Assembly: GCA_021741245.1 (NCBI GenBank)
Contig: JAIOYF010000004.1
Location: 350,990 to 414,989, forward strand
Length of the DNA: 64,000 bases
From: Paracoccaceae bacterium
GTDB lineage: Bacteria > Pseudomonadota > Alphaproteobacteria > Rhodobacterales > Rhodobacteraceae
Direction of reading: 5' to 3'
Below the pieces are notes generated by a model, which was not told where the DNA came from, searched no databases, and saw nothing but the letters and a program-made list of their open reading frames with translations. A program made the translations under genes and the position numbers. Positions 53,590-60,601 of this stretch are shown piece by piece. The number at the start of each line of letters is the position of its first letter. Positions within the stretch are counted from its first letter, which is position 1.

Positions 53590-54855
53590 TCACGCCGCGA
53601 TGAATTCGTTCCATTTGCGCACCATGTACTGGTTTTCGTCCATGACGGCGTTCCAGCAGGCCACGGCACCCATACGGTCATAGAACGATCCGCCGTCGCG
53701 CGTGTCGCCAGCACCGGCCAGTTTGTCGCCAAACGGGTTGGTGATGTCGCCAGCGGCGGCCTTGCCTTCGAACCAATAGCCCCACTCGTCGGCGCTCATG
53801 AATTCCTTGGAGGTTTCTGGCACGGCCGAGTAATAGCCCTGACGCATCAAGAAACCGCCAACCCAGCCCGAGAGATACCAGTTGATGTATTCATAGGCCG
53901 CATCCAGCGCCATGCCCGACAGGTTGGCCGACAGGCCGATGCCGCCACCCCATGATCGATAGCCCTCTTTCAGCGGTTGATAGACGCATGGAATACCACG
54001 CGACTTTACGGCCGTGATCGCAGGCGACCACATCGACTGAATAACGACCTCGCCCGAGGCCATCAGGTTGACGCTTTCATCGAAAGACTTCCAGAAGGCG
54101 CGGAATTGCCCGGCTTTCTTGGCCTCAGTGAAGATGCCGATGGTCTTGTCGATCTCTTCTTTGGTCATGTTGCCTTTGTCGGCATAGCTGATTTCGCCCA
54201 TGGCTTCGCAGACCATGGCCATGTCCATGATCCCGATGGACGAGATATCAAGGATAGAGGCTTTGCCCTTGAATTCCGGGTTCAACAACTCGGCCCAGCT
54301 TTCAATCGGGCGACCGATCAGGTCGGGGCGGATGCCCAGTGTATCGGCGTTATAGATTGTCGGGATCAGGGTCATCCAACCGGATTCCTCGGCGACGAAA
54401 TCCTTGCCACCCGGACCGGAGGTAAAGCCCACGCTGTGCGGGGCGGTGCCTTGGGCGATTGTGCTTTCCGGTGTCAGTTTGCCATCGCGGAAGATGCCAA
54501 CGATCTTGTCGTAGTTCTTGATTTTGCTGGTATCCATCGCCTGCAGGTTGCCTGTTGGCCAAACCTTTTTGCAGATCCAGTATTCGATATCGGCAATGTC
54601 AAAGCTGTCTGGCTGGGTTGCTGCGCGCTGTGTCACGCTGTCAGAATCCAGTGCCGTCATTTCCAGCGTAAAGCCCAAGTCCTCTTTGACCTTGGTGGCC
54701 ACTTCATTGAGGTTCGACACGCCTGTGCCGAACTGGCGCAGGGTGATGTCCTTGATCTCTTGCGCCCAGATCATCGGTGCCGGAAGGGTGGATGCGGCAA
54801 ACGCGGCGGCCCCTGTTTTCAGAAGCGAGCGGCGGCTGTATCTTATCTTGCTCAT
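53590..54855 (-). CDS. Extracellular solute-binding protein with a Tat-type signal
   Basis: SRRSLLKTGAAAFAAS twin-arginine leader and a PotD/PotF-like fold pattern. Confidence 0.8.
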   Translation of the reverse strand: MSKIRYSRRSLLKTGAAAFAASTLPAPMIWAQEIKDITLRQFGTGVSNLNEVATKVKEDLGFTLEMTALDSDSVTQRAATQPDSFDIADIEYWICKKVWPTGNLQAMDTSKIKNYDKIVGIFRDGKLTPESTIAQGTAPHSVGFTSGPGGKDFVAEESGWMTLIPTIYNADTLGIRPDLIGRPIESWAELLNPEFKGKASILDISSIGIMDMAMVCEAMGEISYADKGNMTKEEIDKTIGIFTEAKKAGQFRAFWKSFDESVNLMASGEVVIQSMWSPAITAVKSRGIPCVYQPLKEGYRSWGGGIGLSANLSGMALDAAYEYINWYLSGWVGGFLMRQGYYSAVPETSKEFMSADEWGYWFEGKAAAGDITNPFGDKLAGAGDTRDGGSFYDRMGAVACWNAVMDENQYMVRKWNEFIAA

Positions 54856-54879
54856 TCTTTTTTTCCTTTTCCTGTTGGT

Positions 54880-55857
54880 TCATGCGTTGAGGGGATGGAG
54901 AAGTTTTTCATCCCAAGCGAGGCGGATGGCATCGCCGGGCGATTTCGGATCGGCAAAGAAAATGGCCTCGGGGATCAGGGCCAGAACGTCTTGATCCCCT
55001 GCCGCGCGGGCGTTCAGGGCCACATGCGCGCCTTGATATTCGACGCTTGTCACCACGGCCTCATGCCCCTCAGCGTCCAGACGCACTGCATCGGCGCGAA
55101 TGGCAAAGCGGCCCCGTGGCAGCGACAGCACATTGTGACCGCCCATGAAACGGGCAACAAATTCTGTTTTGGGGGCGTTGAACACCTCACGTGCGGGTCC
55201 GGCCTGTTCGATCTGGGCCGCATTCATGACCACGATTTCATCAGCCAAAGCCAAAGCCTCGTCCTGCCCATGGGTGACGTGGATAAAGCTGATCCCCAAT
55301 TCGCGTTGCAGCTTTTTCAACTCGGCCCGCATTCTGATGCGCAAGAAGGGGTCCAGCGCCGACAGCGGTTCATCCAGCAACAGAACCTGCGGCCCCGTGA
55401 TCAGCGCCCGTGCCAAGGCGACGCGCTGTTGTTGCCCGCCCGACAATTGTGCCGGAAGGCGCGCGGCAAAGGCCGACATATCCACCAGTTCCAGCATTTT
55501 GCCTGCCGATGCGTGGCGGCTGGCGGCATCGACGCCTTTCATCTTCAGGCTGAAGGCCACATTATCCAGCACAGAAAGATGCGGGAAAAGCGCGTAATTC
55601 TGAAACATCATTGCCGTGCCACGTTTGGCCGGGGGCAGGGCAGAGATATCTTTGCCCGACAACAAAATTGCCCCGTCGGTCACGGTTTCATGGCCTGCGA
55701 TCATCCGCAAGGTCGAGGACTTGCCGCAGCCCGATGGCCCAAGAAGGCAAATATAGCTGCCTGCGGCAAACAGGTGGCTGACGTTGTCAACGGCAACAGC
55801 GCCACCCGCATAGCGCTTTGTCACATGGACAAGTTCAAGGTCGTGTCCGCTTCGCAT
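54880..55857 (-). CDS. ABC transporter ATP-binding protein (PotA-like)
   Basis: Walker [10 protein letters not shown], signature LSGGQQQR, Walker B LLLDEPLS. The ATG at 55857 has an AAGGA Shine-Dalgarno. Confidence 0.85.
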   Translation of the reverse strand: MRSGHDLELVHVTKRYAGGAVAVDNVSHLFAAGSYICLLGPSGCGKSSTLRMIAGHETVTDGAILLSGKDISALPPAKRGTAMMFQNYALFPHLSVLDNVAFSLKMKGVDAASRHASAGKMLELVDMSAFAARLPAQLSGGQQQRVALARALITGPQVLLLDEPLSALDPFLRIRMRAELKKLQRELGISFIHVTHGQDEALALADEIVVMNAAQIEQAGPAREVFNAPKTEFVARFMGGHNVLSLPRGRFAIRADAVRLDAEGHEAVVTSVEYQGAHVALNARAAGDQDVLALIPEAIFFADPKSPGDAIRLAWDEKLLHPLNA

Positions 55858-55865
55858 GATGTTCC

Positions 55866-55901
55866 TTTTCGCGCTGACAATCCCATGGAAAAGCGCGAAA
55901 A
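55866..55901. promoter_or_regulatory. 10-bp perfect inverted repeat TTTTCGCGCT-N16-AGCGCGAAAA abutting the ABC ATPase ribosome-binding site
   Basis: Read directly from the sequence. On the minus-strand mRNA the 3' arm runs straight into the AAGGA Shine-Dalgarno. Confidence 0.4.
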
Positions 55902-56003
55902 CGGGCGACCGCAAATAAATCCGGGAGCAAAGCCTCGATGTTTGTCTATTGCTGAAATCTTGGGCTATTGGATACGAGTGGATGCGTAAAATGTGCGCAA
56001 GAC

Positions 56004-56822: not shown

Positions 56823-57602
56823 TCAGGGGGCAAGGGTGATCCAGACCGGCACGTGGTCCGACGGTTTGTCGCCCGCGCGTACCTCTTTATCAATGCCCAC
56901 GCCCGTCAGGCGGTCGGCAGCCTGCGGCGATAAAAGCAGGTGATCAATGCGGATGCCGTTGTTCCGTTCCCAGGCATTGGCCTGATAATCCCAGAACGAA
57001 TAATGCCCCGGCCCCTGCACCCGCGCCCGAAATGCATCGGTCAGGCCAAGATTGAGCATCTTGCGATAAGCTTCGCGTGTTTGTGGCAGATAGAGCGCGT
57101 CGTCCTTCCAGGCCTCTGGTTTTGCGGCATCTTCGGCCTGTGGGATAACATTATAGTCGCCTGCGCAGACAAACGCTTCTTCCGCCGACAGCATTGCGCG
57201 CACCCGCGCCTCCATGCGAGCCATCCATGCCAGTTTGTAATCATATTTCGGCCCTGGAACCGGATTGCCGTTGGGCAGGTAAAGACCACAGACCCGAACC
57301 GGACGCTCTGCCATGACAACCGCTTCGATCCAGCGGGATTGCTCATCACTGTCATCTCCGGGCAGGCCACGGCTGACATCTTCAAGCGGCAGACGCGACA
57401 AGATGGCCACGCCGTTAAAGCCCTTTTGACCGTGGGTTTCTACCCGGTATCCCATGTCTTCAAAAAGCTCGCGGGGAAACCCTTCATCAACGGATTTGAT
57501 CTCTTGTAGGCAGACCACATCGGGGGTTTTGGCCGAAAGCCAGCGGGGCAGGGCCTCAATCCTTGCTTTGATCCCGTTGATGTTGAACGTGGCGATGTGC
57601 AT
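56823..57602 (-). CDS. xthA: Exodeoxyribonuclease III
   Basis: MHIATFNINGI N-terminus, CLQE, and a C-terminal SDHVPV motif. Confidence 0.9.
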   Translation of the reverse strand: MHIATFNINGIKARIEALPRWLSAKTPDVVCLQEIKSVDEGFPRELFEDMGYRVETHGQKGFNGVAILSRLPLEDVSRGLPGDDSDEQSRWIEAVVMAERPVRVCGLYLPNGNPVPGPKYDYKLAWMARMEARVRAMLSAEEAFVCAGDYNVIPQAEDAAKPEAWKDDALYLPQTREAYRKMLNLGLTDAFRARVQGPGHYSFWDYQANAWERNNGIRIDHLLLSPQAADRLTGVGIDKEVRAGDKPSDHVPVWITLAP

Positions 57603-57810
57603 GGGGCCCTCCATTTGCCCTTAGGTATCGGGCATCCTCAGACCCGAAGCAAGCCACGCCACCCAAGTGGTTCCGCCAAAGAGGACCGCCTCCACAATCA
57701 AAAAGGGAGAGGTCGAAAAATAATTCAATTTAAACGGGAAAATATCTTGTCAGAATCGCTTTTGGGTTGATAGCCTGACTTCGTTAGCTGTTTACAACCT
57801 GGAGGTTATT

Positions 57811-58005
57811 ATGAATTCCAACACTGCAACTGTTCTGCGTCAAGAAACCATCGCACTCGTTTCCAAAGAAGCCGATATGCTGTCGGGTTCCGAGACGGTC
57901 ATGATGACCAGCGTCGCTTTGGACGCGATCGCTCAGCGTAGCGGTGCTGCCGACATGATCTGTGGCGCGAACGCGTTCATGATGACAAGCGTCGCTGACC
58001 TGTAA
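57811..58005 (+). CDS. 64-aa peptide with a duplicated 19-residue module (candidate precursor or scaffold peptide)
   Basis: GGAGG (57801-57805) sits 5 nt before the ATG. The product is MNSNTATVLRQETIALVSKEADMLSGSETVMMTSVALDAIAQRSGAADMICGANAFMMTSVADL. A 20-nt DNA repeat tcatgatgacNagcgtcgct occurs at 57899-57918 and 57977-57996. Confidence 0.6.
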   Translation: MNSNTATVLRQETIALVSKEADMLSGSETVMMTSVALDAIAQRSGAADMICGANAFMMTSVADL

Positions 58006-58012
58006 GCCTTTC

Positions 58013-58051
58013 GGGGACGGTCTTGCATCTTGTCGATGCAATGCCGTCCCC
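58013..58051 (+). promoter_or_regulatory. Strong intercistronic stem-loop after the peptide gene
   Basis: GGGGACGG tc TTGCATC ttgtc GATGCAA tg CCGTCCCC, i.e. 8+7 bp with a 2x2 internal loop. It begins 8 nt after the stop and has no U-tract. Confidence 0.6.
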
Positions 58052-58070
58052 AAAACATCAGAGGCAAGTG

Positions 58071-59138
58071 ATGTCCAATGTCGTATCCTTGCGGCGCGCT
58101 GAGCCTTGCAGTTCAGTGCCTGCGCACAATGAATTGATTGATCTTTTTGCCAATCGTCGTCGGGGACGGCGTGACGCTTACTGGTTGAAAGAGAATGCCG
58201 AACTCTTGCAGGTGCTTTTGGCAAGCAGGGGTTCGATGACCGAAGAACTGGATCTGTCGCCCTATGCGGGATTTATCGCATCAATGGTCGAAGATTTGCA
58301 GTTTTTCCCACAGTATTATCGGCTTTTCCTGTCAATGGCCCTTGATCTGGCAGCCCTTGGGATGCCACAGGTTCCCGTGGTAGAAATTGCAAAGTTCATT
58401 GTCGATCAGGATCTAACCGAGATTGAGCTTTCCGACAGCCACCGTGCCGAGGCGCGCTTGCTTCTGTCACGGGCGGGTCATGTTTTGCCCGGGGATGAGG
58501 AACTGGCGTTGAGGTTGGCGTCATTCGCGCGCAAAAGCGCGCTCTTTTGCCTTCCCAATCGCCAACTCGCCTATGCGCTGACGCATACCGTGTTTCACGC
58601 CTCGGATTATGGGCGCAATGCTATGTCACCTTGCGCTGATCGCAGGCTCGCGCTGATGAATGTCGGGATTGTCGCTTGGTTGGAGGACAATCTGGATCTT
58701 TTGTCCGAAGTGGTGGTCGCGCTGCGCCTTTCGGGCGAGCATGTTCCAGACGTGTGGCGTCAGGCTATCGCGCAGGCGGTGCAATCGCTTGCGGCGGAAA
58801 CCGGGCCCGAACTGGGACCATTCGATGATGCCTATCACGAATATCTGGTCCTGAATTGGGCGCATGCGATGAGCGGCGGTTCTGTCTTTGCGGCCCCTAT
58901 GGCCTCTGGTGCGCGGTATTTCCGCCGTACCAAAGGGGCTGATGCTGCCCTGCGGGATCTGTCGATCTGTTTGCTAAACATGGGGGATGGCCGCAGTCAG
59001 GATTGGGCGCGCATGCGCTGGCGCATCTGGCCAAAGCTATCAATACCGGTTCGGGCAAGGATCGAGGCAATCGAAACGCTCCCCGAATTCACCCAATTTT
59101 TCAATGGCTTTGCTCGGGTAGCACAGGTGAACACATGA
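58071..59138 (+). CDS. Hypothetical 355-aa protein, predicted helical, no family recognised
   Basis: ORF 58023..59138. The ATG at 58071 has GAGG 7 nt upstream, whereas the TTG at 58023 lies inside the hairpin. His-containing motifs: LTHTVFHASDYG and DDAYHEYLVLNWAH. Confidence 0.7.
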   Translation: MSNVVSLRRAEPCSSVPAHNELIDLFANRRRGRRDAYWLKENAELLQVLLASRGSMTEELDLSPYAGFIASMVEDLQFFPQYYRLFLSMALDLAALGMPQVPVVEIAKFIVDQDLTEIELSDSHRAEARLLLSRAGHVLPGDEELALRLASFARKSALFCLPNRQLAYALTHTVFHASDYGRNAMSPCADRRLALMNVGIVAWLEDNLDLLSEVVVALRLSGEHVPDVWRQAIAQAVQSLAAETGPELGPFDDAYHEYLVLNWAHAMSGGSVFAAPMASGARYFRRTKGADAALRDLSICLLNMGDGRSQDWARMRWRIWPKLSIPVRARIEAIETLPEFTQFFNGFARVAQVNT

Positions 59139-60067
59139 TGCGACGACTGGAAAACCCATTGGTCGCCGGCGTTTTGCTTTTATGCCTGTCGACGCTTGCC
59201 GGAACTTTGGCGGACGGAACCGTCAAGAAACTTTCGATAGAGATTGAGGCGCCACAGGTTTTCTTTCTGTCGGGCCTGATCATGGCAGGGTTAAGCTATC
59301 TGTCGGCGACGGCACGCTCCAAAATGGGGGCACGCCGAACAAGTTGTTTGCGCACATCCGAGCCGTTGTTGCTGTTTTGGCGTTGTGTGGCCACCGTGGC
59401 GGCCTCGCTCGGCTTTTTCTATGCCGTGGCGCTGATCCCATTGGCCGAGATCTTTCTGTTCGTCGGGATGATGCCGCTGATGTCAGCGCTGTTGTCGCGG
59501 GCGATGTTGCGCGAAACGGTCCATGCTGGCGATTGGTTTGGTCTGGCGATTGGGATGATTGGGGTTGCGATGCTGTTTCCCCATGGATTTTCGGGCCTTA
59601 CCCTAGGCCATCTTGCGGGGTTTGCTGGTGCGCTGTCGGGAACCGTTTCTCTGGTCCTGTCACGCATGATCGCACGACGTGAAATCAATGCGCTGGTGCA
59701 GGTTTTTTACCCCAATCTGGCATTGGCGATTGTGGCGATGATCTTGTTGCCTTCGGTCTGGCGGCCGATGGGTTTGTTGGTCACAGGGCAAATCATGCTC
59801 TATTCCGGGCTGCTGTTCTTGGCGCGTTGGTCGATGGTTTTGGTGATGCAGCGCCTGCGCGCGCCAGTTGCCCTGCCGCTGATGAATGTGCAATTCGTCT
59901 GGATGGTGGCTGTGGGGCTTTTGTTCTTTGGCGAGGTGCCGGCCATCGCCACGCTTCTCGGGGCTGGTCTTGTGATGGTCGCGGGTGTGGTTGCCCTTGG
60001 TGAACAGGCCCGGCTTGACCGGATCGCCGCCGCGCGCGCGCCGCGCGATGTGGTTGCCGCCGAATAG
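59135..60067 (+). CDS. DMT superfamily (EamA-like) transporter
   Basis: ~10 hydrophobic segments over ~310 aa. Its ATG overlaps the upstream stop (ATGA). Confidence 0.75.
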   Translation: MMRRLENPLVAGVLLLCLSTLAGTLADGTVKKLSIEIEAPQVFFLSGLIMAGLSYLSATARSKMGARRTSCLRTSEPLLLFWRCVATVAASLGFFYAVALIPLAEIFLFVGMMPLMSALLSRAMLRETVHAGDWFGLAIGMIGVAMLFPHGFSGLTLGHLAGFAGALSGTVSLVLSRMIARREINALVQVFYPNLALAIVAMILLPSVWRPMGLLVTGQIMLYSGLLFLARWSMVLVMQRLRAPVALPLMNVQFVWMVAVGLLFFGEVPAIATLLGAGLVMVAGVVALGEQARLDRIAAARAPRDVVAAE

Positions 60068-60103
60068 CGTCACTCCATCTGAAAGCGACACTCCACGGCA
60101 GGT

Positions 60104-60134
60104 GCCCCTCTGACAATTCTCAGGGGGGCCTTTT
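60104..60134 (+). terminator. Rho-independent terminator after the DMT gene
   Basis: Stem GCCCCTCTGA / TCAGGGGGGC (one G-U pair), loop CAATTC, followed by CCTTTT. Confidence 0.6.
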
Positions 60135-60137
60135 CGC

Positions 60138-60470
60138 TTACATCGAAAATGAGGTGCCACAGCCACAGCTGCTAGAGGCATTCGGGTTTTGAATAACAAA
60201 ACGCGCACCAATCAGCTCTTCCGTAAAGTCGATCACCGCATTTTGCAAAAACGGCAGTGAGACCTGATCGACCAGAACCTTTTGGCCGTCTTTTTCCAGC
60301 ACCAGATCGTCGCCCACCGGGTCATCAAGCCGAATGTCATATTGAAAGCCCGAGCATCCGCCGCCATCAACCGCGACACGCAGGGCCTTTTGCTGGCCCG
60401 TTGCCTCGGCGATTTCGGCCAGCCGGGCAAAGGCACGGTCGGTCACGCGGGGGGGCAGAGTAAGTTCCAT
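60138..60470 (-). CDS. erpA: Iron-sulfur cluster insertion protein (HesB/IscA family, ErpA-like)
   Basis: GGCSGFQY and C-terminal CGCGTSFSM motifs. The ATG at 60470 gives 110 aa. Confidence 0.85.
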   Translation of the reverse strand: MELTLPPRVTDRAFARLAEIAEATGQQKALRVAVDGGGCSGFQYDIRLDDPVGDDLVLEKDGQKVLVDQVSLPFLQNAVIDFTEELIGARFVIQNPNASSSCGCGTSFSM

Positions 60471-60601
60471 GGTGCGCATCCTGTAAAAGGGACCTGTGGA
60501 GTAGATATAGGCCTCGAACGGGGGTGTCGCAAGGCGATGCATGCCCTAAAGCATTTGCCGCAAGACTCTGTTCGCCTCCGGTTTATCGGCCTATAGTCAA
60601 C

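Follow-up and report, generated by a model that had tools for sequence, protein, structure and literature searches.

The DNA analysed in this study (hereafter the window) is a 64,000-nucleotide stretch from Paracoccaceae bacterium (assembly GCA_021741245.1, contig JAIOYF010000004.1, positions 350,990 to 414,989 of the forward strand), in which a plus-strand unit of three genes lies between xthA and erpA. An earlier sequence-only reading had proposed that this unit is a compact peptide-based system consisting of an upstream region, a small repeat peptide, a hairpin, a protein of no assignable family, a DMT exporter and a terminator. All six elements are present in the sequence, so the observation itself is confirmed, with two corrections: the upstream region is 196 bp rather than 208 bp, and the 355-aa protein does belong to a family, Pfam DUF6902. 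The features are as follows.

57615..57810 (+), AT-rich upstream region of 196 bp, with a conserved block (about 57746-57775, TTGTCA-N17-ATAGCC) and the ribosome-binding site GGAGG at 57801-57805
57811..58005 (+), gene for the precursor-like repeat peptide (64 aa)
57901..57918 (+), first core motif, MMTSVA (residues 31-36)
57979..57996 (+), second, C-terminal core motif, MMTSVA (residues 57-62)
58013..58051 (+), GC-rich intercistronic stem-loop between the peptide gene and the DUF6902 gene, with no T-tract after it
58071..59138 (+), DUF6902 protein (355 aa), the putative peptide-modifying enzyme
59135..60067 (+), EamA/DMT-family membrane transporter (310 aa), its start overlapping the DUF6902 stop codon (ATGA)
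60104..60139 (+), intrinsic-terminator-like hairpin plus T-rich tail, between the convergent EamA and erpA genes

Organization of the locus

The region upstream of the peptide gene has a GC content of 0.469, falling to 0.328 in the stretch 57700-57760, against 0.602 for the whole window. Alignment with two related loci (L001 and L010) showed conserved blocks (TTGYCMGAATCGCT..GGTTGNTAGC and TTACAACCWGGAGGTTA) in otherwise diverged sequence. A scan for sigma-70 promoters gave no consensus hit, and neither this region nor the hairpin had a match in Rfam at E<=1, so that a known RNA element was rejected; a promoter role for the region is inferred, not shown. The GGAGG lies 5 nt before the ATG of the 64-aa ORF, which is annotated in GenBank as a hypothetical protein (MCF8485295.1). 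The ORF has an N-terminal leader-like part (MNSNTA...) and contains a 48-nt direct repeat (57871-57918 and 57949-57996, 73% identity), each copy of which encodes ADM..G....MMTSVA. The MMTSVA residues are invariant in an alignment of homologues and match the family logo, and the protein ends two residues after the second motif. Homologues have 64-100 aa and 2-7 MMTSVA units. AlphaFold2 (AF2) predicted no globular fold for the peptide, only one helix (pTM 0.28).

The stem-loop begins 8 nt after the stop codon of the peptide gene and is very stable (dG -35.7 kcal/mol, z-score -5.55, with 0 of 200 shuffles folding as well), but it is followed by AAAACATC and so lacks the T-rich tract of an intrinsic terminator or attenuator. 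A hairpin at this position recurs: across 75 distinct loci it starts a median of 10 nt after the stop codon, with a mean z of -1.26 (p 6e-7) against +0.12 for a control inside DUF6902, yet four or more T residues within the next 8 nt occur in 2.7% of loci, and a T-tract follows the hairpin in only 1-3%. The hairpin at the end of the unit (60104-60129), in contrast, was identified by the terminator scan, having a 10-bp stem with 7 GC pairs followed by CTTTTCGCTT, and a fold z of -3.41.

The comparison of base composition with the flanks, which the sequence-only reading had put forward as a check on its impression that the genes are AT-rich, bore this out, although the deviation is modest: the three-gene unit has a GC content of 0.570, in the lowest 8% of same-size windows, and the 1-kb stretch 57600-58599 is the lowest in the window at 0.529.

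The DUF6902 protein and the transporter

The 355-aa protein begins MSNVV, like all its homologues, and is a full-length member of Pfam DUF6902 (PF21843; 328 bits against a gathering threshold of 27 bits, E 8.1e-98, residues 1-350 on profile positions 1-351 of 351). It also scores above the gathering threshold of DUF6895 (PF21836; 69.3 bits against 23.8, E 4.6e-19, residues 18-236), but only profile positions 10-237 of 289 are covered and DUF6902 scores far higher, so that the protein is a relative of DUF6895 and not a member. Every divergent DUF6902 member tested except the degenerate orphan, protein P0210, also matches PF21836. AF2 gave a confident all-alpha model (pLDDT 91.2, pTM 0.90), yet attempts to assign it to a known fold or enzyme class failed: Foldseek against the PDB gave no hit at E<=0.001, a profile search against PDB sequences found nothing, and no NCBIfam match reached its cut-off. 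Enzyme and peptide were not modelled as a fusion. Family-wide invariant residues are K40, E44, R84, E127, H172, D209, E213, W229, H256 and W263.

We did not reach bona fide DUF6895 members whose genomic contexts could be compared: a profile search of 1.84 billion representative sequences returned 235 clusters, of which the 150 examined look like DUF6902 members, and an alignment-based word search returned 18 proteins, all DUF6902. Literature searches for DUF6902, for the motif strings and for repeat RiPPs of Roseobacter or Rhodobacterales found nothing relevant, and we found no publication on DUF6902.

The third protein matched Pfam EamA (PF00892; 44.4 bits against a cut-off of 28.2, E 2.7e-11) in two stretches, with two EamA halves, and is hydrophobic along its whole length; the criterion for an EamA/DMT transporter, two EamA domains each of about five transmembrane helices, is fulfilled. 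It does not reach the cut-off of any NCBIfam equivalog (TIGR00950 scores 36 bits against 230), no solved structure matches it by sequence, and its substrate is unknown.

Conservation of the cassette

Co-occurrence in other genomes had been named in advance as a point on which the proposal could fail, and it did not fail there. In 77 of 80 Rhodobacterales species genomes, a plus-strand ORF made of 2-21 tandem motifs lies directly upstream of DUF6902, the three exceptions being a truncated contig, a masked stretch and a degenerate locus, and an EamA/DMT transporter follows in 65 of 80. The motif is [F/M]-x-[S/T/C/N]-x-x, for example MMTSVA in the window and FTSGS, FTSWS or FTSSM elsewhere. Across 567 motif instances in 76 proteins, position 0 is F in 79% and M in 16%, and position +2 is S in 94%. 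Repeat periods are 8 aa or 20-21 aa, and there are 22 core pentapeptide types, homogeneous within a genome and different between genera. Near-identical relatives (proteins P0009 and P0010) differ by one unit, and the ORFs reach 420 aa with 20-21 repeats (locus L041). In 47 of 76 homologues the protein ends 5 residues from the first residue of the motif, and in 18 of 76 it ends 7 residues from it, as here. Translation of the small ORF had likewise been singled out as a point of failure; there is no experimental evidence of translation, but the ORF evolves as a coding sequence, third-position changes numbering 28-34 against 6-14 at positions 1 and 2.

The cassette has xthA upstream and erpA downstream wherever the contig examined extends that far, across dozens of genera, and we saw no alternative insertion site. 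Candidate culturable carriers are Marinovum algicola DG 898 (MALG_01901), Salipiger bermudensis HTCC2601, and Shimia and Roseovarius species. The suggestion of horizontal acquisition is therefore not supported, and was rejected on synteny: the cassette shows neither a variable insertion site nor a strong compositional deviation, and is ancient and vertically inherited.

Divergent DUF6902 genes in five unrelated contexts also have a small ORF immediately upstream, even where there is no transporter, and two of these carry [F/Y]GSSC[L/M] repeats. Some of the small ORFs next to distant DUF6902 genes are, however, not repetitive and could be folded partner proteins, two of them carrying Sec-signal-like N-termini. 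One orphan DUF6902 gene (locus L094), which has neither the peptide gene nor EamA, has lost nearly all family-invariant residues (K40E, E44Y, R84A, E127Y, H172R, D209E, E213R, W229V, H256K and W263C).

Discussion

A small gene encoding tandem copies of a short peptide motif sits next to an uncharacterized enzyme-like protein and, usually, an exporter in hundreds of marine and freshwater Rhodobacterales, which looks like an undescribed pathway for making a modified peptide or peptide-derived small molecule. The interpretation offered in the sequence-only reading, that of a RiPP or peptide-derived small-molecule locus, is partly supported. Co-occurrence, coding selection, the multi-core repeat architecture, the recurrent hairpin and the homology to a family with a reported peptide-modifying member are all in its favour, and the protein did not prove to belong to a well-characterized family unrelated to peptide or metabolite processing, an outcome that would have counted against it. 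Horizontal acquisition, the hairpin as a canonical attenuating terminator and the exporter as an obligate part of the unit (it is absent from 15 of 80 loci) are not supported. The claims that the peptide is highly expressed and that the product is a small excised molecule were not examined.

Our current working hypothesis, which we hold to be somewhat more likely than not, is that this is a RiPP-like cassette of a kind not yet described. In this view the small ORF encodes a multi-core precursor, in which a leader-like N-terminus of about 25-30 aa is followed by tandem copies of a short core, [M/L/A]-[F/M]-x-[S/T/C/N]-x-x, present twice in the window as MMTSVA, with the protein ending right after the last core. 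DUF6902, with a fold that has no solved relative and a set of invariant His, Asp, Glu, Lys and Arg residues, would be the single dedicated enzyme that recognizes and modifies each core, and because it is related to DUF6895 the chemistry, which is unknown, may be a cofactor-independent backbone reaction such as epimerization. Housekeeping proteases would then release the units and, where present, the EamA/DMT transporter would export the small product. The hairpin after the precursor stop codon probably stabilizes or partly terminates the precursor transcript, so that precursor exceeds enzyme. What our analysis demonstrates is the anatomy of the locus, which is operon-like in its ribosome-binding site, hairpin, start-stop overlap and terminator, together with coding selection on the small ORF, co-occurrence, the repeat architecture, the homology to DUF6895 and the joint decay of the parts, whereas modification itself, its chemistry, proteolysis, export and the biological role are inferences. 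There is no experimental evidence of modification or of a product; processing to a mature product was not measured. The genetic criterion for a RiPP system is nevertheless fulfilled, in that a gene-encoded precursor with a conserved leader-like N-terminus and core parts lies adjacent to its putative tailoring enzyme. None of the three window proteins matched a Pfam or NCBIfam model of a class-defining RiPP enzyme (radical SAM, YcaO, LanB/M/KC/L, ATP-grasp, lasso cyclase, MNIO/DUF692, P450 and others), a dedicated protease or a RiPP-recognition element, Pfam giving above-cut-off matches only to DUF6902, DUF6895 and EamA. Fixation at one chromosomal site across a whole order is, moreover, unusual for secondary metabolism and fits a housekeeping or cofactor role, or a non-RiPP protein pair, better.

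The closest relative by sequence is the DUF6895 family, one member of which is reportedly a lasso-peptide epimerase (2026, 16:1757; cited in PMC13352647 and PMC13453073). Both are encoded next to ribosomal peptide genes, but DUF6902 is a separate Pfam family with its own C-terminal third, the substrate here would be a tandem multi-core peptide rather than a lasso peptide, and no lasso cyclase or protease genes are present. The epimerase analogy rests on a paper title only; the catalytic residues of that enzyme did not enter our comparison, and L-to-D inversion by DUF6902 was not assayed. Among multi-core RiPP precursors (reviewed in PMC7329392 and PMC11253845), those of the cyanobactin PatE type, fungal dikaritins (UstA with DUF3328 oxidases), Kex2-processed repeat proteins and plant lyciumins/burpitides likewise have one gene encoding tandem identical short cores separated by conserved spacers, with variable copy number and a dedicated enzyme of initially unknown function encoded alongside. 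None of their enzymes (PatA/PatG proteases, YcaO, DUF3328, BURP) is present here, the F-x-S-x-x core and the GDAVE-type spacer are unrelated to theirs, and the distribution is order-wide and syntenic rather than patchy. PQQ (PqqA), mycofactocin (MftA) and pantocin A (PaaP), the first two of which had been invoked in the sequence-only reading, share the use of a small ribosomal peptide as feedstock for a low-molecular-weight product and chromosomal, widely conserved genes, with a dedicated exporter in the case of pantocin A. However, there is no radical-SAM enzyme, PqqD-like recognition element or ThiF-like enzyme here, those precursors carry a single core rather than tandem cores, and no product is known.

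An alternative, which we consider unlikely, is that the repeat protein is itself the functional end product, an intrinsically disordered cytoplasmic protein that DUF6902 would bind, chaperone or modify in place, for example as a solenoid-like peptide-binding protein, with EamA only a neighbouring or loosely coupled transporter. Fixation at one site, as for housekeeping genes, the absence of EamA from 15 of 80 loci and the lack of a protease gene are consistent with this, and the best, though non-significant, Foldseek hits are TOG, armadillo and HEAT-type peptide-binding repeats. These have E-values of 0.2 or worse and TM-scores of 0.2-0.3, however, and so provide no real structural evidence. 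DUF6902 carries many invariant charged and His residues typical of catalysis, which are lost in the orphan copy, and the end of the protein exactly after the last core, units as short as 8 aa and rapid copy-number change are the signatures of multi-core precursors.

Less likely still is that the small protein and DUF6902 form a conflict module (toxin-antitoxin-like, anti-phage defence or exclusion) of which the Rhodobacterales version would be a domesticated copy. Outside Rhodobacterales the pair does sit in mobile or defence-type surroundings, for example in a P2-like prophage between the tail genes gpR/gpS and the baseplate gene gpV, next to a reverse transcriptase and a resolvase, next to Schlafen-like helicases and a Fic protein, and next to a transposase. 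Yet none of the three window proteins matched a model in PADLOC-DB 2.0, so a known defence system looks unlikely, as does a phage or plasmid origin: tblastn with the prophage-borne homologue P0282 found nothing in 50,697 phage records or 72,556 plasmids, and IMG/VR held no relative. In Rhodobacterales the cassette is syntenic and vertically inherited, unlike defence islands, tandem short cores and a DMT transporter are not features of known toxin-antitoxin or defence systems, and a bacteriocin-type RiPP as prophage cargo would fit the same contexts. That the small ORF is a regulatory leader peptide, controlling DUF6902 and EamA by attenuation or ribosome stalling, is very unlikely, since although a short ORF with a strong ribosome-binding site is followed 8 nt later by a stable hairpin, whose 5' arm a terminating ribosome would overlap, and then by the structural genes, and EamA-family proteins include amino-acid exporters, the ORFs reach a length far beyond any known leader peptide, the hairpin lacks a T-tract in 97-99% of loci, conservation is at the level of an amino acid motif that changes by genus, and DUF6902 keeps an upstream small ORF even without a transporter.

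A bolder reading, which is doubtful but not excluded, is that DUF6902 founds a new RiPP or peptide-derived-metabolite class that is part of the near-core genome of the Roseobacter/Rhodobacterales group. A single enzyme with a previously unseen fold would act on tandem F-x-S-x-x cores, possibly by epimerization or by a Ser/Thr/Cys-assisted backbone rearrangement releasing a very small product such as a D-residue peptide or a diketopiperazine-like compound. The product, exported by a DMT transporter, would then be a lineage-wide signal, cofactor or allelochemical, the genus-specific core sequences giving each genus its own variant.

For natural-product enzymology the cassette offers a minimal system of one precursor and one enzyme, in which the enzyme has no significant structural match in the PDB and the precursor repeat logo pinpoints the substrate motif, making the function of two DUF families (DUF6902 and, by extension, DUF6895) directly testable. 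Rhodobacterales, the Roseobacter group, are among the most abundant and ecologically influential marine heterotrophs, and their chemical interactions with algae and other bacteria are studied intensively. A ribosomal-peptide pathway conserved at one chromosomal locus in hundreds of their species, and absent from the literature that we could search, would be a new handle on their signalling or chemical ecology.

Anatomy of the locus and identity of its products

The plus-strand unit that the sequence-only reading had described between the minus-strand xthA-like and erpA-like genes is present as described, so that the observation itself held. Its features, together with the two flanking genes, are as follows.

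56823-57614, minus strand: xthA-like gene (Exo_endo_phos)
57615-57810: upstream intergenic region of 196 bp, GC 0.469 (0.328 in the stretch 57700-57760, against 0.602 for the window)
57811-58005, plus strand: 64-aa ORF, with GGAGG 5 nt before its ATG, containing a 48-nt direct repeat at 73% identity, each copy of which encodes ADM.xG....MMTSVA
58013-58051: 39-nt stem-loop starting 8 nt after the stop codon of the 64-aa ORF, dG -35.7 kcal/mol, z-score -5.55, with no T-tract following
58071-59138, plus strand: 355-aa ORF (DUF6902), ending inside the ATGA that starts the next gene
59135-60067, plus strand: 310-aa EamA protein
60104-60139: hairpin plus T-rich tail, closing the unit
60138-60542, minus strand: erpA-like gene (Fe-S_biosyn)

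Base composition had been named beforehand as a point to be measured against the flanks, and the unit proved to be somewhat AT-richer than its surroundings, with a GC content of 0.570; the 1-kb stretch 57600-58599 is the lowest in the 64-kb window at 0.529. No sigma-70 consensus promoter was found by scanning and no Rfam family was matched. However, within 57746-57810 a conserved upstream block, TTGTCAGAATCGCTTTTGGGTTGATAGC, and TTACAACCTGGAGGTTA are shared with two of the compared loci, L001 and L010, within otherwise diverged intergenic DNA, and the first of these could be a non-consensus promoter or a regulator-binding site. Elsewhere in the window, a 670-aa TTG-initiated ORF (53977-55989, plus strand) lies antisense to a 344-aa ORF (54880-55914, minus strand) that reads like an ABC-transporter ATPase; the former is most likely a spurious shadow ORF in GC-rich DNA.

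The 355-aa protein had been left without a family in the sequence-only reading, which had proposed homology searches as a test. It is a full-length member of Pfam DUF6902 (E 8.1e-98) and also matches DUF6895 significantly (E 4.6e-19), whereas searches against NCBIfam and PADLOC returned nothing for it. One DUF6895 member is named, in the title of a 2026 paper cited in PMC13352647, as a lasso-peptide epimerase. With a 28-sequence alignment, AlphaFold2 gave a confident all-alpha model (pLDDT 91.2, pTM 0.90), yet a Foldseek search with this model found no PDB chain at E<=0.001, the best hits being helical-repeat proteins at E about 0.2 and TM-scores of 0.2-0.3, and a profile search of PDB sequences was also empty. 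The family is small: only 235 clusters at 50% identity, out of 1.84 billion representatives, match at E<=0.001. The third protein is an EamA/DMT transporter, which passes the Pfam cut-off with two domains but fits no characterized NCBIfam equivalog and has no solved relative by sequence.

The small ORF is a real gene and encodes a multi-core repeat protein. Homologues of the 64-aa peptide exist, some of which have the MMTSVA unit expanded to 6-7 tandem copies in 92-100 aa, and two near-identical proteins differ by exactly one unit. When the window was compared with two relatives with 64-aa homologues (67-73% identical), substitutions were concentrated at third codon positions (28-34, against 11-14 at position 1 and 6-13 at position 2). 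The ORF is annotated in GenBank as a hypothetical protein in a Rhodobacteraceae/Paracoccaceae MAG. Modelled alone, it is predicted as a single helix with pTM 0.28, so it has no globular fold.

Comparative genomics of the cassette

Co-occurrence of the genes in other genomes had been set in advance as a condition on which the proposal would stand or fall. We scanned one genome per species for DUF6902. At least 505 confirmed DUF6902-encoding stretches were found which, as two search patterns were used, correspond to at least about 250 loci. All 80 loci retained for comparison are from Rhodobacterales, and they span dozens of genera, including Pseudotabrizicola, Thioclava, Roseovarius, Shimia, Sulfitobacter, Salipiger, Ruegeria, Tateyamaria, Pelagimonas and Primorskyibacter. 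In all of them, wherever the contig extends that far, DUF6902 lies downstream of xthA and upstream of erpA. The cassette is therefore ancient and vertically inherited, which rules out recent horizontal acquisition.

The gap between xthA and DUF6902 varies from about 460 to 1700 nt, and in 77 of 80 loci it holds a plus-strand ORF built of 2-21 tandem motifs, the exceptions being a truncated contig, an N-masked stretch and one degenerate locus. Across 567 motif instances in 76 distinct proteins, the logo is G(-6) D/E A V/T E M/L/A F(0) T S(+2) G/S/W/V S/L/A/M A/G P, with F at position 0 in 79% of instances and M in 16%, and S at +2 in 94%. Rarer variants (FISWS, FVSWS, FISGS, FTCGL, FPSGS, FTNWC, FCSGL) show that only position 0 (F/M/Y) and position +2 (S/T/C/N) are constrained. 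Repeat periods are 8 aa (MMTSVASS, LFTSGSTA, MFTSGLVQ) or 20-21 aa with an acidic GDAVE-type spacer, and in 47 of 76 proteins the stop codon comes right after the five-residue motif. There are 22 core types, which are nearly identical within a genome and differ between genera, while the N-terminus (M-S/T-A-Q/L-x-K ... S-L-H-D-G) is conserved like a leader. The largest precursor seen, from Puniceibacterium sediminis (L041:4675-5937), has 420 aa with about 20 near-identical GDAVEMFTSGSAP(A/S)GTKATT units, implying recent expansion or concerted evolution of the array.

The coupling between the small ORF and DUF6902 is functional and not just syntenic. Divergent DUF6902 genes outside the Rhodobacterales synteny each have a small same-strand ORF immediately upstream. 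Two of these ORFs carry [F/Y]GSSC[L/M] repeats (L101, L102), and four (L098, L104, L105, L107) carry a conserved 61-64-aa protein ending D-x-x-K/H-Y-x-F-x-x-K/R, with two paralogues each in L105 and L106. A further two (L095/L097 and L103) encode 73-90-aa proteins with signal-peptide-like N-termini; these Sec-signal-like N-termini, MKSTVIGIAICTTFSVNAMA in L095 (5757-5990) and MKTLLMTPSIALAFGLSGNAIA in L103 (246-518), are hard to reconcile with a cytoplasmic enzyme acting on them. The surrounding contexts are mobile or conflict-type, comprising a P2-like prophage, a reverse transcriptase with a resolvase, Schlafen-like helicases with a Fic protein, and a transposase. In the prophage (L107:7791-9029, Scandinavium sp., GCA_044900545.1) a 61-aa ORF plus a DUF6902 gene sit as cargo between the tail genes gpR/gpS and baseplate gene gpV, and the small protein (…TPSSVICDSDHYCFVVR) belongs to the family also seen in L098, L104 and L105. 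In the metagenomic contigs L104-L106 the divergent DUF6902 lies near a reverse-transcriptase (RVT_1) gene, and in L104 and L106 next to a resolvase, a mobile or defence-like neighbourhood; in L105 and L106 two paralogous small ORFs (61 and 64 aa) precede it.

Conversely, one Rhodobacterales-type locus (L094:5672-7005, GCA_041224595.1) keeps an orphan DUF6902 ORF between xthA and erpA but has no repeat ORF and no EamA. This copy has replaced nearly all residues that are invariant in the rest of the family, namely K40, E44, R84, E127, H172, D209, E213, W229, H256 and W263, and looks like the cassette in decay. The components decay together, and the invariant residues behave like an active site.

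EamA follows DUF6902 in 65 of 80 loci, and in most of the other loci DUF6902 directly abuts erpA. None of the non-Rhodobacterales loci has EamA. The core module is therefore the peptide plus DUF6902, and the exporter is optional. A GC-rich hairpin starting a median of 10 nt after the precursor stop codon recurs in 75 distinct loci with different sequences (mean z -1.26, p 6e-7, against +0.12 for a control inside DUF6902). As it is almost never followed by a T-tract, it is not a canonical terminator, and is more likely a transcript-stabilizing or partial-stop element.

Discussion

The sequence-only reading had interpreted the unit as a compact candidate peptide-based system whose composition suggested horizontal acquisition, and this interpretation is partly supported by our analysis, horizontal acquisition being the part that is not supported. 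The reading that we consider best supported, if only somewhat more likely than not, is an undescribed RiPP-like pathway in which a leader plus multi-core precursor is modified by a single enzyme with no solved structural relative, which is related to a peptide epimerase family, the product then being released by general proteases and, where EamA is present, exported. The gene arrangement, the repeat architecture and the co-occurrence of the parts were observed directly, whereas modification, release and export are inferred, and the chemistry is unknown. Epimerization is the only analogy with any support; the conservation of S/T/C/N at +2 is also compatible with a nucleophile-assisted backbone reaction, but this is speculation.

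Of the alternatives, a non-processed disordered repeat protein that DUF6902 binds or modifies is unlikely but survives best, followed by a conflict or TA-like pair, which is suggested by the mobile contexts of distant homologues and which we consider rather less likely still. A role for the small ORF as a regulatory leader peptide is very unlikely.

We found no paper that mentions DUF6902, the motifs or such a cassette. The logic is that of multi-core RiPP systems already described, but the enzyme family, the precursor family, the minimal gene set and the lineage-wide conservation are new. The main oddity is the order-wide fixation of the cassette at one locus, which argues for a conserved physiological role, such as a signal, cofactor or common allelochemical, rather than typical strain-specific secondary metabolism.
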